DNA of 64,000 nucleotides from Candidatus Parcubacteria bacterium (GTDB lineage Bacteria; Patescibacteriota; Patescibacteriia; PEXW01): contig QZJU01000021.1 in assembly GCA_003597955.1 (NCBI GenBank), positions 44,880-108,879 on the forward strand. The letters are read 5' to 3'. A program made the translations under genes and the position numbers. This document shows, piece after piece, positions 44,844-50,434 of the stretch. The first letter of the stretch is position 1; each line of letters opens with the position of its first letter. The notes under the pieces are model-generated. The model ran no database searches, had not been told where the DNA came from, and saw nothing but the letters and a program-made list of their open reading frames with translations.

Positions 44844-45293
44844 TTATTTTTGATTTTTCTTGAAACGGATAAAAGCTTTAATGGTTTTGTCATAAGTTTC
44901 GGCAAGATTTTTCTTTAGAGCTTGATCCGGCGCCACCCATAAATATTTGTTTAATTCACGGGTTTCCAACCTTATTCGTCCGCCTTTGGTGCGGCAGTAA
45001 ATATCAAAATAAATAAAATGGGCCGGACGGTAAAAGTCCTTAGAATTTATCAGTTCGCCCCAGGCGACAATCGCAATCGCTTTTAACTTTAAACCCGTTT
45101 CTTCTTGGGCTTCCCGAATTTGAGAGGTCAGAATGTTTTCACCGGGTTCCAGGTGTCCGCCCGGCAGAGTCCATTTGTTATGCCATTTTTGGGAGCGCAC
45201 CAGAAGAATTTGTCCTTTTGGATTCTCAATAATTGCTGAACCGACAACTTCAATACCTTTAGTAAACTTGAGGTTTTTTTTCATTGCTGACAA
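44844..45293 (-). CDS. NUDIX hydrolase (NudI/dNTP pyrophosphatase-like)
   Basis: WTLPGGHLEPGE..REAQEETGL. Confidence 0.88.
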   Translation of the reverse strand: MSAMKKNLKFTKGIEVVGSAIIENPKGQILLVRSQKWHNKWTLPGGHLEPGENILTSQIREAQEETGLKLKAIAIVAWGELINSKDFYRPAHFIYFDIYCRTKGGRIRLETRELNKYLWVAPDQALKKNLAETYDKTIKAFIRFKKNQK

Positions 45294-45305
45294 ATAATTT
45301 TAAAA

Positions 45306-45373
45306 TGGTGTCCTAGGTAGGTGGGACTCGTACTCCCATGACCTTGCGGTCATCCGCCTAGGCGGGACGCGTC
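45306..45373 (-). pseudogene. Degenerate 3' part of a tRNA-Leu-like gene
   Basis: GACGCG, a palindrome in place of the anticodon arm, variable arm TGACC-GCAA-GGTCA, T-arm TGGGA-GTACGAG-TCCCA, and CTAGGAC-ACCA end. Confidence 0.65.
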
Positions 45374-45376
45374 AGT

Positions 45377-45496
45377 TGGTGCACTCTACTGGACAAGTTT
45401 AGAACCCTGAAATGGGAGGATTATTACCGCTTTCCAGAAGTAGCGCTACAGCAAATGAAATCTTTATTGCAAATGTACCCTGCTCCAATTTCCTAA
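45377..45496 (+). other. Displaced C-terminal coding segment of the integrase (WCTLLDKFRTLKWEDYYRFPEVALQQMKSLLQMYPAPIS*)
   Basis: No start of its own. In frame with the integrase across the TGG-TGC core after in silico circularisation. Confidence 0.7.
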
Positions 45497-45572
45497 TACT
45501 AGCTTAAAAGCGTTTAAAAATCAAGGGAAAAGTGGTAAAATAGAAGACAAGTAAAGATGTAACGAAGAAGTA

Positions 45573-46127
45573 ATGAAAAAAGAGCAAAATCATCCACAAA
45601 CTAGGGAGCGTATCGCACGGTTGTTGATAGACAAGGGGTTTTTAGAAATGCTGGAAAAAGGGCGTACAAAAAAGAATGAGGAGTTAGATAAGTGGATTTG
45701 TGAGATACGAAAAAACTTCAATCTTTCAAAGTATTATCACAGAGTGTTGCAGACAATAATTTCTATTCCTGACATTCAATATCAAAAGTTCTTAGCTGGC
45801 ACAGCGTGTATCATCGCATTACCTGATGAGTGTCGTAAGAAAAATTATTTTGCAATAGAAGTATTCCCTGAAACATCAGAAAAAGACGTGGTAAGAGCAT
45901 TTTCGGCAATACGCAAGAAATATCACGAATCAGATGAAATACCAAAACGGCTTCGAACCTCACCAAGTTTTTCCAAACAACAGTATGCCTTACAGAGGAG
46001 CGAAGATGGAGCAACGTATAAGAAAATTGCAGAAGAATTGAAGCAAATGGGTTATTCTACGACCTATTTTGAGGTTTCAGATTTAATAAGAAAAATCAAA
46101 AACAAGGCTAAGTCGGTTTCTGGTTGA
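45573..46127 (+). CDS. Hypothetical protein with C-terminal HTH (island regulator?)
   Basis: GATYKKIAEELKQMGY..EVSDLIRK HTH-like segment. Confidence 0.65.
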   Translation: MKKEQNHPQTRERIARLLIDKGFLEMLEKGRTKKNEELDKWICEIRKNFNLSKYYHRVLQTIISIPDIQYQKFLAGTACIIALPDECRKKNYFAIEVFPETSEKDVVRAFSAIRKKYHESDEIPKRLRTSPSFSKQQYALQRSEDGATYKKIAEELKQMGYSTTYFEVSDLIRKIKNKAKSVSG

Positions 46128-46200
46128 TAACGATATAGTTATCGGCCTTATACGTGATTTTGATAGGTAGATAGACTGTGGGTAGAAAGCTCACAGTCTT

Positions 46201-46377
46201 ATGAAACTAAGTAGCCAAAAATTATCTGAATTAAAGCAAATCATACAGGATGATTTTGGTGTCAAGCTTGATGACCAATTCGTTTTTGTTATTGGCAGTG
46301 AACTTATTGCACTATTTGACCATTTGTACTCTTACGATTTTCAACAAAAAAATGAGCAACCTAACGAGCGTAACTGA
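46201..46377 (+). CDS. 58-aa small protein (MKLSSQKLSELKQIIQDDFGVKLDD...), absent from the ORF track
   Basis: Manually translated. Overlaps the next gene start. Amphipathic helical pattern. Confidence 0.7.
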   Translation: MKLSSQKLSELKQIIQDDFGVKLDDQFVFVIGSELIALFDHLYSYDFQQKNEQPNERN

Positions 46378-46645
46378 AATATCAATCACGCCTATTAGAC
46401 CACGAGATGGTCTTACCGCTTTTGCCTCTTTTGTCCTTGACGATAAGTATTTCGTTGCAGGCGTAGCAATTTTTACAAAATTGAGCGGTGGCTTCCGCTT
46501 GGTTTTCCCGACCCGCAAAATTGGTCAAACCAATCTCAATTTGTTTAATCCAATCAAGCGTGAAGTTGGCGAGATAATTGAGAGAAAAGTTAGTGAAGAA
46601 TTAACAAAACTGTATGATAGACAACTTACGGAATATAAAACTTAG
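46352..46645 (+). CDS. SpoVG-family nucleic-acid-binding protein
   Basis: VTEISI.P..GL.AFASFVLDD..V.GV.I..G.RL.FP.RK..PI. Confidence 0.78.
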   Translation: MSNLTSVTEISITPIRPRDGLTAFASFVLDDKYFVAGVAIFTKLSGGFRLVFPTRKIGQTNLNLFNPIKREVGEIIERKVSEELTKLYDRQLTEYKT

Positions 46646-47033
46646 AGTCCCTAAATGTTGGCAGGATAAAAGGATAATGCGTTTTTTGAGAAAACATTAT
46701 TCGGGGAAAAAACGTACAACCGCCATAGCAATTTATGTAACTCTAAGCGAGATGGCAAGTAATGCTAATTCAGAAACCTTTAAGTCCTATTACAGTCAAA
46801 TTGGTGAGATGGCTGGTAAATCATCATCAACCATCAAGCGTTATTGCAATGATTTTATCAAGCTGACTATTTTAGAAAAAAAGAATCATAAGAAGGGGAA
46901 GCACAACTTAGCTAATCAGTGGTCGTTACTAGCATACTCTCCAATGAGATTACAGTCGGGTCGTAATAATGACCTGACCCCTAATAAAATTAGTCTCAAC
47001 CAAGGCCAAAATAATAACCCCGACTCCATTTAA
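46614..47033 (+). CDS. Winged-HTH replication-initiator-like protein, possibly truncated
   Basis: AIYVTL..S..QIGEMAGKSSSTIKRY..F..L.ILEK..N.W.L; TGACC-type repeats at the 3' end. Confidence 0.6.
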   Translation: MIDNLRNIKLRVPKCWQDKRIMRFLRKHYSGKKRTTAIAIYVTLSEMASNANSETFKSYYSQIGEMAGKSSSTIKRYCNDFIKLTILEKKNHKKGKHNLANQWSLLAYSPMRLQSGRNNDLTPNKISLNQGQNNNPDSI

Positions 47034-47132
47034 TATACTGACCACATCTCTACTTACCTAATGACCCACTAATAGAATATATTACTTAGAATTATTTACT
47101 AAGAAGGATACCCCCCATAAGCTAATCCTTAT

Positions 47133-47501
47133 ATGAAGTGTCAATTTACAAAACAAGACGGCCAACAATGTGAGGGAAATGCAATATATGATAGCCAGTA
47201 TTGTTTTTCGCATAACCCTGACAGTCGGCAGGCAAAGAATGAGGCAGTCTTAAACGGCGGGCTTGCCCTCAAAAAAATAAAGTTTGAATTAGAAGAAGTC
47301 GAAATAAAATCTATTCAGGACATCACTGCACTTTTGGCCAAAACAATAAATGAACTTAGGACTAACAAAATCCCACCCAAAATCGCCGTTAATATAGGTT
47401 ATTTATCAAACATCATGATTACATCTCTTAAGGAGGGTGAGATTGAAAAAAGATTGGAGGTGATAGAAAATGCAATCAAACTACATAAGTCGAATGAATA
47501 A
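47133..47501 (+). CDS. Hypothetical protein with N-terminal C-x9-C-x10-C-x2-H Zn-finger-like motif
   Basis: CQFTKQDGQQCEGNAIYDSQYCFSHNP. Confidence 0.7.
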   Translation: MKCQFTKQDGQQCEGNAIYDSQYCFSHNPDSRQAKNEAVLNGGLALKKIKFELEEVEIKSIQDITALLAKTINELRTNKIPPKIAVNIGYLSNIMITSLKEGEIEKRLEVIENAIKLHKSNE

Positions 47502-48051
47502 AATTATTTCCGAAATGGATTTACCAGCGATGGATGAGCATTTTTTCAATAGTGGAGGTTTAAGTTTTTTAAATGGGCTACCAAAAGGCAAAGTGACGTC
47601 GTTACTTTTGTATGGGACATACCAATCCTCAAGGTTTTATCTTGTCACGGTAGCGTTTAATAAAATTAAACTCTTGACGTATATCAGCGAGCTGATTGCA
47701 GAAGAGTTTGAAAACCTAATTTTGTTATCATACCTCTTTAGTGTTTCAGGCGATGAGAAAACTGTGAGGATGAGAAAATTATTCTCTGATAAGAACCCCG
47801 ATGACACACTAAAGCAAATCTCCCAGTTAGTAGAGAGGCAATCGGTTTTACTAGAGGAATTATCGAAGTTGAAACCACTAATAAAGGAAAACCACAACAC
47901 ACCTTATGTTAGCGAGCAATTTGACGGCTGCAACTTGAAGGATTTGGAAAATAAAATCCTTAATGAGTCATTTTCAGTTGGTTTGGAGACAGCCAATTTA
48001 ATAGCAAAAAAACTCTTAATTTCGTTGACAAATAGCCTATATGAGGCATAA
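47494..48051 (+). CDS. Hypothetical protein
   Basis: Long ORF overlapping the previous stop; no recognised motif. Confidence 0.65.
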   Translation: MNKIISEMDLPAMDEHFFNSGGLSFLNGLPKGKVTSLLLYGTYQSSRFYLVTVAFNKIKLLTYISELIAEEFENLILLSYLFSVSGDEKTVRMRKLFSDKNPDDTLKQISQLVERQSVLLEELSKLKPLIKENHNTPYVSEQFDGCNLKDLENKILNESFSVGLETANLIAKKLLISLTNSLYEA

Positions 48052-48070
48052 TTAAGGCACAATCTAAATA

Positions 48071-48147
48071 GCGGTGACACGCATTCAAGCCCCCGTAAGG
48101 GTGGGTCGAAGCGTGTCACCGCATTAAGCCCATACCTGCGGGGGCTT
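48071..48147 (+). promoter_or_regulatory. Structured GC-rich leader with two interleaved helices
   Basis: GCGGTGACACGC/GCGTGTCACCGC and AAGCCCCCG/CGGGGGCTT. Confidence 0.55.
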
Positions 48148-48215
48148 CAATTTCCAGACAAATATGCAGGTCATTAACAGTCAATTCTTTAAGAAAATAA
48201 TTAACCAAAAGAAGT

Positions 48216-48815
48216 ATGGACAACCAACCTTCTCAAGAGCAAAAACCAAAAAGTAAGTTAAAAAGATTGGGTAAAAGAGTTTTAGCCGTAATAGTTGGGC
48301 TAGTGGCTTTGTTTGTCATTCTGATAATTGTTGCAGTTGCCACAGATAACAAAAATAGTAATAGTAACAGTGCTGGTAGTGAAAATAATAACGCAAGCAG
48401 CGTGGAGATGACCTATGAGAGTAAACTTGAAAAAGCAATCACTGATGAGATTGGCGCAAAAAATAATATGGATAAACCAAAAGTCAGGAGCGTTAAGGTG
48501 ATGAATCCTAATGAAACGTTGGTTGAAATCAACGGCGACGAGAACCTGACAAGTGGGATGACTAAAAAAGGAATTGATAAGGACATCCTCAACACGTTCA
48601 AGGCTATATTCGCCACTGATACAAACCCCAATCTCCTTGCGTCTGTTGATGTTTATTTCCCGACAGTGGACAAATACGGCAATGAATCCGATAACCGTGT
48701 TATCCGTGCTCTCCTTAAACGGGAAACTGCTAACAAGATACAGTGGGATAATATCTTGTTAGAAAATATCCCAGCCGTGTTCGATGATTACGATGAGTAT
48801 GTAAAGTTTGAGTAA
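48216..48815 (+). CDS. Membrane-anchored exported protein
   Basis: Basic N-terminus, single TM, Asn/Ser linker and a VDKYGN domain. Confidence 0.75.
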   Translation: MDNQPSQEQKPKSKLKRLGKRVLAVIVGLVALFVILIIVAVATDNKNSNSNSAGSENNNASSVEMTYESKLEKAITDEIGAKNNMDKPKVRSVKVMNPNETLVEINGDENLTSGMTKKGIDKDILNTFKAIFATDTNPNLLASVDVYFPTVDKYGNESDNRVIRALLKRETANKIQWDNILLENIPAVFDDYDEYVKFE

Positions 48816-48817
48816 CC

Positions 48818-50401
48818 ATGAATGCCGTCCTATTCGCCAGAGTGTCCAGTAAAGAGCAGGAGGAGTCAGGGTACTCCCTCCCCGCTCAAGAAAAACTCCT
48901 TAAAGAATACAGCGAGAGGAAAAGTTTTAGCATTGCTAAGATATTTTCCATTTCAGAGTCAGCAACTGGCAAAAAGCAACGGGAGACATTCAACGAGATG
49001 ATTGAGTATGTGACCAAAGGCAATATCAAGCACATCATCTGCGAGAAAGCCGACAGGCTGACCCGAAACTTCAAGGATATGGTGATGATTGATGACTGGC
49101 TGGGTAAGGACGCAGAACGGCAGGTGCACCTTGTTAAAGACTCTCTCGTCTTGCACCAAAACTCCCGCTCCCAAGAAAAGCTTAACTGGGGTATCCGTGT
49201 GCTGTTCGCAAAAAATTACGTTGATAATCTGGCCGAGGAGGTCAAGAAAGGCAAGCGTGAAAAAGTAGCGCAAGGATGGTATCCGACACGGCCACCTTTA
49301 GGGTATATTTCCGTGGGTGAAAGAAGCCACAGGATTTGCGTACCTGACGAACATAAAGCCCCTCTTATCAGGAAAATGTTTGAGTGGTACGCAACAGGCA
49401 ATTACTCCCTAAAGAAGGTGGTGGAAATGATGTATGAAACGGGCTTAAGGACAATCCACAATACCAAGGTACAAAAAAGTCGGCTTCACCAGATTTTGTC
49501 TGACCCCTTTTACTGCGGAAAAATTGTCTGGAAGGGTGAAGAATATCAGGGGAAACAAGAAAAAATCGTGTCAGAGGAGTTGTTTCAGCAAGTCCAAGCA
49601 ATCCTTAAGCAAAAAACGACCCCGCACTACCGCAAACACCTCTCGCTGTTTAAGGGGTTAATCAGGTGCAGTGAATGTGGCGGGTTAATCACTTGGGAAA
49701 CGCACAAAGGGCATTGGTACGGTCACTGCAACCATTACCGTAACTGCTCCAAAAAGGAGTATGTGAGGCAAGAAAAACTTGAGGAACAACTACTCAACCA
49801 ATTTGTAGCTATAGCGCCTAAAAGCGATAGGTTGGTCAAATGGATACAGGAAGCGCTCAAGGAAAGCCACGCAGACGAGATTACGTTCAATACCCAAGCC
49901 CGTGATGAGCTTAACCGTCGCTATGAACACGCCCAGAAGCGCCTAGAAGTCCTCTACGACGACAAAATTGACGGTAAGATAACTACGGAGTTCTACGAGG
50001 CCAAGTTCAAACAGTACAGCGCAGAGCAGAAGGCTGTTTTGAAATCACTTAATGACCACGATGACGCCAAGTCCAAGTATTACGAGCTTGGTGTTAATGT
50101 GCTCGAGCTGGCTCATAGGGCAAAAGAAATCTACGAGCACCCCAAAATGCTGGTTGAGCAGAGACGGACGCTACTTAACCATATTTTTTCGAACCTGCGC
50201 TTAAATGGCGATAGATTAGAGGTTTCTTACACGCCAGTAGTTGAGGTTTTAGCGCAATTGACTCCCGCCCTCAATAAAACTTTCGAACTCCAGAAAAGTA
50301 CCGCAAACACAACACTAACCCTTCAAAGTATGAACGGTTCTAGTGTTTGGTGCCGGAGAGAGGACTTGAACCTCCAAGGGCTTGCGCCCACACGGCTCTG
50401 A
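48818..50401 (+). CDS. Large serine recombinase (integrase)
   Basis: Catalytic ARVSS, DRLTRN, PPLGY, PFYCG, Zn ribbon CSECG..CNHYRNC and coiled coil. Last codons read through the tRNA antisense. Confidence 0.95.
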   Translation: MNAVLFARVSSKEQEESGYSLPAQEKLLKEYSERKSFSIAKIFSISESATGKKQRETFNEMIEYVTKGNIKHIICEKADRLTRNFKDMVMIDDWLGKDAERQVHLVKDSLVLHQNSRSQEKLNWGIRVLFAKNYVDNLAEEVKKGKREKVAQGWYPTRPPLGYISVGERSHRICVPDEHKAPLIRKMFEWYATGNYSLKKVVEMMYETGLRTIHNTKVQKSRLHQILSDPFYCGKIVWKGEEYQGKQEKIVSEELFQQVQAILKQKTTPHYRKHLSLFKGLIRCSECGGLITWETHKGHWYGHCNHYRNCSKKEYVRQEKLEEQLLNQFVAIAPKSDRLVKWIQEALKESHADEITFNTQARDELNRRYEHAQKRLEVLYDDKIDGKITTEFYEAKFKQYSAEQKAVLKSLNDHDDAKSKYYELGVNVLELAHRAKEIYEHPKMLVEQRRTLLNHIFSNLRLNGDRLEVSYTPVVEVLAQLTPALNKTFELQKSTANTTLTLQSMNGSSVWCRREDLNLQGLAPTRL

Positions 50402-50434
50402 ACCGTGCGTGTATACCAGTTTCACCACTCCGGC
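50348..50434 (-). tRNA. tRNA-Leu(CAG)
   Basis: GCCGGAG..CTCCGGC-ACCA acceptor, CACGG-TTCAGAG-CCGTG anticodon arm, long variable arm, GGTTCAAGTCC. Confidence 0.96.

Follow-up and report, generated by a model that had tools for sequence, protein, structure and literature searches.

The closest described counterparts of the locus reported here are integrase genes that contain their own attachment (att) site. In the ssrA islands of Dehalococcoides the 3' end of dsiB, which encodes a large serine recombinase (LSR), always overlaps the att site, and it was proposed that DsiB attains full function only in the circular or tandem state (McMurdie et al. 2011, PMC3146451). The serine integrases of streptococcal integrative and conjugative or integrative and mobilizable elements (ICEs and IMEs) at rumA also have att within the gene and exchange their C-terminus upon integration (Ambroset 2016, PMC4701971); a snf2 case of such an exchange has been added (PMC5357655), and a functional difference between the forms was proposed. 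Myxophage Mx8 IntP has attP inside int and receives a short replacement C-terminus, the integrated form being reported as less active (PMC4701971, PMC6070905, PMC4383910). Here we describe a 4,971 bp island at the 3' end of a tRNA-Leu(CAG) gene, found in a 64,000-nucleotide stretch ("the window") of Candidatus Parcubacteria contig QZJU01000021.1. We consider it probable that this is an integrative element whose serine integrase gene spans its own tRNA-Leu att site, and that insertion detaches a 37-residue tail and so likely weakens the enzyme.

The window integrase is like DsiB in being an LSR of about 540 residues whose gene overlaps, at its 3' end, an att site at a small-RNA gene, and which reads into either antisense sequence or the next island. 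It differs in that DsiB targets ssrA (transfer-messenger RNA) and is accompanied by a second small recombinase, DsiA, whereas the window element lies at a tRNA-Leu gene and a domain scan of its open reading frames (ORFs) found no second Resolvase domain; the accessible text on DsiB describes no conserved distal tail, T-loop motif or remote sites of the kind reported below. The rumA and snf2 integrases share with it an att site inside a serine integrase gene and a C-terminal end exchanged by integration, but their targets are protein-coding and their elements conjugative or mobilizable, whereas the window integrase sits at a tRNA. Mx8 IntP is a tyrosine recombinase and loses 112 residues, where the window serine integrase would lose 37. 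The suicidal SSV-type tyrosine integrases likewise have the recombination site within the integrase ORF (PMC7253208), but their gene is split into two pieces, whereas the window gene keeps its canonical domains in one ORF. The original prediction for this locus, made from the window sequence, took integrase genes split by attP to be known mainly for the archaeal tyrosine type; this was incomplete, as serine examples are in print (DsiB in 2011, the rumA ICEs in 2016). An LSR gene split by its own att site is already known, and the idea of a functional switch was proposed in 2011 and 2016; the parts that appear to be new are the targeting of tRNA genes and the remote copies of the motif TTCGAAC inside the gene.

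In its integrated form the integrase has 527 residues (Table 1). Its Pfam matches to PF00239 (Resolvase), PF07508 (Recombinase) and PF13408 (zinc-ribbon) are all above cut-off, NCBIfam CcrB and XisF matches lie far below it, and a Foldseek search with a model of a homologue gave serine integrases as the best matches. The ORF crosses the core, the short sequence common to both island ends, at W511-C512 and ends with 15 residues read off the antisense strand of the tRNA, and at the far core copy the same frame runs through W-C and 37 further codons to a stop, both as originally described. Rejoining the two ends gives 549 residues in place of 527. All canonical integrase domains end before the crossover and are intact in the integrated form (domain scans and models). 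The model of the window protein is ordered to about residue 490, with a predicted local distance difference test score (pLDDT) below 50 over residues 493-527, and in the model of a natural homologue that has the tail, a disordered linker leads into short helices predicted with modest confidence (pLDDT 53-66). On these predictions integration takes away an appended module, instead of adding one, and the canonical domains remain complete. As a stand-alone peptide the window tail was rejected because it has no in-frame start; ATG, GTG or TTG begins 10 of 25 distal tails.

The stretch shared by the two ends is exactly the 7 nt TTGGTGC that had been noticed at both of them. This heptamer occurs 10 times on the + strand of the window, so by itself it proves nothing and independent support for the boundaries is needed. 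The island has a GC content of 40%, against 47% for the window. In relatives, tRNA-Leu(CAG) lies inside the same 3.3-kb stretch as the start region of RNase J in 13 of the 14 loci fetched, which leaves no room in those 13 for a comparable island. A related element in genome G012 matches the window tail at 62 of 69 nt, beginning exactly at 45379. On the host side of the left core, a 44-nt stretch is 84% identical to a sequence between tRNA-Leu(CAG) and RNase J in the same-genus genome G002 (L003 858-901), which is without the island. An alternative left boundary at the decayed tRNA-like piece near 45305 was rejected because similar sequence is present in an island-free relative and the G012 match starts at 45379. 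We note that decayed tRNA-Leu-like 3' pieces with short palindromes follow tRNA-Leu(CAG) both in the window (45305-45375) and in island-free relatives (L002, L003, L015).

Both C-terminal forms expected from such a layout are found among natural homologues, as had been foreseen. A protein search found 2088 homologues, and among the 120 listed, to which this census of C-termini applies, 58 have tRNA antisense ends, 33 stop just past the core, 20 carry a non-tRNA tail and 9 end otherwise. The tailed forms are scattered over 13 separate clades, with body identity to tRNA-ended forms of up to 90%, and this scatter rules out a separate subfamily of tailed integrases. The earlier idea that the circular and integrated states encode two isoforms, with the host tRNA used as coding sequence, survives in its first half, since both forms occur naturally, and lacks support in its second: the length of tRNA-derived tails varies between 2 and 82 codons, with 16 of 60 ending two codons past the core, which gives no sign that the tRNA acts as meaningful coding sequence.

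We assembled 82 related loci, 80 from genomes and 2 viral (one false junction, L041, was dropped and two loci were re-anchored). The integrase reads in frame into a tRNA T-loop in 59 of these by pattern and in 6 more by eye with a called tRNA; the rest comprise 7 with a non-tRNA tail, 6 cut by contig ends and 4 others. Targets in relatives include tRNA-Asn, Gln, Tyr, Ser, Asp and Arg. In all 17 loci for which both ends could be paired, the window included, four core bases are identical and in register at the two ends, and this short core, without any long direct repeat, follows the target (GCTC for Asn, GTGC for Leu and Tyr, GCTG for Gln and GCGG for Ser). The placement of the att site inside the integrase gene is supported, and so are the conservation and the register of the distal tail.

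Conservation of that tail, which the original prediction had proposed to look for by alignment, was observed. A profile built from 22 natural tails, none of them from the window, placed the window distal frame at the top of 43,876 six-frame fragments of the genome (E 4.5e-10; the runner-up had 0.32), and after 5 mis-picked rows were dropped it still ranked first (E 2.1e-10, next 0.21). The alignment has an invariant W and near-invariant F, R, P and L at fixed spacing, the last residues being free to vary, and in 24 of 25 distal tails the integrase frame stays open over 28 codons or more, as against 3 and 2 for the other frames. Beyond the att arm the proportions of nonsynonymous and synonymous differences (pN and pS) are 0.23 and 0.76 (17 pairs at >=60% identity), with pN below pS in 17/17; frame-shifted controls gave 0.31/0.34 and 0.35/0.30. 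A pattern that uses DNA only, built after the alignments had been seen, gave 27 plus-strand matches, 21 of them open for 25 codons, against 5 and 4 in the other frames. By these comparisons the distal tail is under purifying selection as protein, and the tRNA-derived tail is not conserved. When the 82 loci were searched with the tail profile (E<0.1), all 23 matches lay on the integrase strand: 3 fused to the integrase, 20 at 4.6-9.6 kb upstream and none downstream.

The zinc-ribbon domain offers a likely reader for the att arms. The sequence TTCGAAC is present with at most one mismatch at the attP-arm position (+18..+24) in 20 of 25 distal tails, and at the tRNA-arm position (+13..+19) in 49 of 51 loci, the latter count being partly by construction because junctions were anchored on the motif. 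The positions of GGAC and the 5-bp shift of GAACC between the two arms are as first reported, and so is the rule that the zinc-ribbon motif lies 5 bp nearer the centre in attB than in attP. In the LI/A118 model that motif occupies bp 16-24 in attP and 11-19 in attB (Rutherford 2013, PMC3783163), and the window motifs end at +24 and +19 if the crossover is at the last two core bases (GC, 50352-50353). From this geometry GC, one base to the right of the TG first proposed, is the more likely crossover; window palindrome matches are 11/27 about the GC axis versus 9/27 about TG. The LI and A118 enzymes also have the same domain order and fold, but canonical sites have the motif in both half-sites, whereas here it is in right arms only, with further copies 66-170 bp inside the gene. 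The 9/14 dyad reported around TG is present in the window attP (shuffling p 0.017, uncorrected for the choice of axis and window); it is not a family trait, since left arms lack the inverted motif. Nor is the proposal of a symmetric attP supported: an inverted motif was found at the attP distance in 0/51 integrase-side arms, and a search about the GC axis at either distance, allowing up to 2 mismatches, gave 0/51 on the integrase side and 0/25 to the left of tails.

Further copies of the motif, which the original prediction did not mention, lie within the integrase gene itself. Among 51 dereplicated loci, 48 have TTCGAAC again at 63-66 bp upstream of the core codon; the loci are kin, and these counts do not represent independent events. 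At this copy (-66 in the window) the Glu codon is GAA in 51/51 (background 64%) and the base following it is C in 51/60 loci (16% after Glu codons in the background), and in 5 loci the motif is one base off, in another reading frame. A second copy takes one of two arrangements. In 20 loci it is inverted, 34-36 nt upstream, and mostly completes a 48-bp palindrome that has the attP spacing; in 25 loci it is direct, as in the window, and its distance upstream is 94 or 103 bp. Both arrangements occur in 2 loci and neither in 1. Control windows gave a mean of 1.4/51 and a maximum of 7. At the -160 distance the F-S-N motifs are written TCG AAC in 19/19, TCG being the rarest Ser codon (98/1071 in the background). 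A beta-strand predicted in the zinc-ribbon domain contains one of the remote motifs. In distant viral members, whose linkers are short, the -66 copy is not clearly seen. Conservation of these copies as protein motifs is ruled out by the codon bias and the frame changes, and as judged from these patterns the constraint on them acts on DNA.

In the mechanism that we favour, the tailed 549-residue enzyme would be made only from the rejoined site, which would arise on the excised circle or by tandem insertion of a second element, and it would insert the element beside the acceptor end of the tRNA, leaving the tRNA intact. The integrase likely reads the tRNA T-loop as the attB motif and the copy 5 bp further out as the attP motif, the motif being carried by right arms and not by left arms. 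With the tail stripped by insertion, the chromosome would probably encode a weakened 527-residue form, in line with the report on Mx8. For the copies at 66 and 160 bp inside the gene we predict a role as accessory sites, bound by the integrase, by which the element side is marked; being remote and on that side only, they may make up for the missing left-arm motif.

Several observations weigh against this mechanism. Excision would be impossible for an integrated form that had become too weak, and would therefore call for some remaining activity or a helper. Neither a circle junction nor an empty site of the window island itself was seen, none of the relatives being close enough to show the exact empty site. 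A tail match is found in only 12 of the 31 loci that have about 10 kb upstream; longer islands or other tail types may be the cause. In the reverse search the tail matched at 20 places in 18 of 151 genomes, and of the 14 such regions fetched only 4 were followed downstream by an integrase that reads into a tRNA end, with the core matching (of the other 10, 7 reached a contig end and 3 showed no integrase over 20 kb). Trimmed of the part up to F-R-T, the window tail still ranks first, but only at E 0.2, and the tails compared for pN and pS were picked with a protein profile, which biases that comparison toward a purifying signal. Two tail-fused integrases (L022, L026) are on long chromosomal contigs and not on circles; the 10 kb downstream of each gave no match to a tRNA or a second integrase. 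The sole circle found (L123) belongs to a subgroup 40-43% identical to the window protein and has a short 15-residue tail.

The same data can be read as a true directionality switch, in which integration is all that the tailed form does and excision falls to the tail-less form, the pair taking the place of a separate directionality factor. In its favour, the motif is missing from both left arms (0/51 and 0/25 at the P-like distance): attP x attB and attL x attR would thus look alike to the enzyme, so direction must come from elsewhere, and none of the island ORFs matched a known directionality factor in the scans. These factors, however, vary too much for family scans to exclude one; a 58-aa candidate recurs in 8 of the 82 loci, and chromosomal tandem arrays (L052, contig C16) also make the tailed form. 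We think this switch unlikely. At the other extreme the gene may simply overlap attP, with the two forms equivalent and the remote motifs serving as decoys or left over from older att arms. The integrated form keeps all canonical domains intact, one subgroup has only a short tail, and McMurdie et al. (2011) list such a trivial reading for DsiB. Purifying selection on the tail speaks against equivalence, as do remote motifs that keep fixed spacings across reading frames, one of them within a zinc-ribbon beta-strand, and two remote arrangements that are nearly mutually exclusive, and we give this reading a distinctly smaller chance than the switch.

Least probable in our judgement, at a very small chance, is that presence or absence of the tail sets the half-life of the protein with catalysis unchanged. 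In the models a disordered linker carries the tail as a short helical appendage that lies outside the DNA-binding fold, and the tRNA-derived end is predicted to be disordered, both as such a stability switch would have it; the invariant W and the near-invariant F, R, P and L at fixed spacing look more like a binding module than a terminal tag. Beyond these readings a wider generalization is conceivable, and we put it forward tentatively, as somewhat doubtful: the window enzyme may represent a widespread, so far undescribed kind of serine integrase that reads the universal tRNA T-loop through one-armed att sites and takes its direction from accessory sites in the gene and a removable C-terminal module, with no separate factor, and whose machinery also moves integrase-less cassettes into integron-like arrays.

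Islander (2015) stated that serine integrases were not known to target tRNA genes; contrary to this, the LSR family described here targets tRNA genes across many genomes of the candidate phyla radiation. The word tRNA is absent from the main text of a large LSR mining study (PMC10083194). The accessible part of a preprint on tycheposons reports an LSR in 27 of 937 elements without naming the targets (10.1101/2020.12.28.424599), and PMC13626063 includes a figure that sorts integration sites by integrase type; serine integrases at tRNA genes may already be shown in either. We found no paper on a tRNA-targeting LSR family, its tail or its remote sites in a literature search whose coverage left out most subscription journals. 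The tail-less form dominates databases, with 91 of the 120 listed homologues ending in tRNA antisense or just past the core, so that mining pipelines would test a truncated protein, and the attP that such pipelines use may be too short by >100 bp. If remote sites and the tail do control direction, this would be a route differing from the model of a coiled coil plus a directionality factor.

In contig L123 (6,845 bp), which has a 127-nt terminal repeat, the integrase end lacks a tRNA and the tail is short and not tRNA-derived; the matching half-site lies 5.2 kb upstream in its integrated relatives L120 and L121. L123 also contains a second half-site (1700 and about 3246), and the circle seems to hold a captured 1.5-kb cassette. 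Tandem insertion rejoins the frame as well: in L052 and on contig C16 a tailed integrase lies upstream of an element with a tRNA-type end, and tail-fused proteins in databases are therefore no proof of circles. The tandem pair on C16 (50831-55968), in the same genome as the window (G000), is at tRNA-Lys and its upstream enzyme has a non-tRNA tail; this genome also contains a truncated tRNA-reading serine recombinase at tRNA-Gln (C3 26457-27280). Integrase-less cassettes of 0.6-2 kb with 1-5 ORFs lie between successive tail half-sites in L084 (709-2299), L016 (988-3048), L062 (49-641) and L060 (848-2767), and several of them end in a similar motif plus hairpin, giving an integron-like array. 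In L196 (312-5537), 5.2 kb separate a tail half-site from tRNA-Asn with a matching core, and no integrase was found in this interval. Around four other tail regions without an integrase (L192, L195, L198, L201) there are tRNAs nearby, but they could not be linked with the tail.

Homologues 56-60% identical occur in records labelled archaea and Bacteroidota (L022, L035, L077, L026), by transfer or mis-binning. A first viral scan gave 2 loci and a second 62, mostly distant and with tRNA-type and other tails; the tail profile matched none of the 36 second-scan loci examined. Searches of phage and plasmid collections gave only distant integrases, at most 32% identical among the matches listed, and the two best phage records also read into tRNA genes.

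Table 1. Features of the island and its borders in the window
Feature	Position	Strand	Basis or remark
Host-side flank, decayed tRNA-Leu-like 3' piece and short palindrome	45305..45375	-	outside the island
Left core copy TTGGTGC	45376..45382	+	far junction; family-wide core GTGC at 45379-45382
Split-off integrase tail	45383..45496	+	37 codons and stop, no in-frame start of its own; pattern D-x-F-R-T-x-x-W-x6-P-x9-L
attP-arm motif TTAGAAC	45399..45405	+	+18..+24; likely zinc-ribbon-domain site, overlaps the F-R-T codons
184-aa ORF, possible regulator	45573..46127	+	weak C-terminal helix-turn-helix (Pfam HTH_23 E 0.029, below cut-off); unnamed Atlas clusters only
58-aa ORF, candidate directionality factor	46201..46377	+	no family match; tblastn matches in 8/82 related loci
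SpoVG-like nucleic-acid-binding protein	46355..46645	+	Pfam SpoVG E 1.2e-7
Short replication-initiator or helicase-loader-like protein	46677..47033	+	PHROG 186 E 8.5e-6; several replication-initiation PHROGs
122-aa ORF with N-terminal Cys/His cluster	47133..47501	+	weak DUF5763 match; homologues in 2/82 loci
193-aa ORF	47470..48051	+	no family found
199-aa membrane-anchored cargo protein	48216..48815	+	PHROG 8263 E 2e-15; weak superinfection-exclusion matches
Large serine recombinase, integrated form, 527 aa	48818..50401	+	residues 513-527 from the tRNA antisense strand
Remote TTCGAAC copy at -160 (F-S-N codons)	50188..50194	+	94 bp upstream of the -66 copy
Remote TTCGAAC copy at -66 (F-E-L codons)	50282..50288	+	found in 48/51 dereplicated loci
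Right core copy TTGGTGC	50347..50353	+	tRNA junction; likely crossover dinucleotide GC 50352-50353, from motif geometry
tRNA-Leu(CAG), target gene	50348..50434	-	intact, CCA end; tRNA call and Rfam
tRNA T-loop antisense CTTGAAC	50365..50371	+	+13..+19; likely attB zinc-ribbon-domain site

Family scans recognised no known directionality factor among the island ORFs, and the 58-aa and SpoVG-like proteins stay candidates for this role. Promoter and terminator scans of the island gave matches at chance level, and an Rfam scan found nothing besides the tRNA. Outside the island a NUDIX gene (44844-45293) lies between the tRNA locus and RNase J; no such ORF is evident in two same-genus loci. A 23-nt imperfect inverted repeat (48083-48151), itself containing palindromes, lies between the ORFs of 193 and 199 aa and is a possible origin or terminator.

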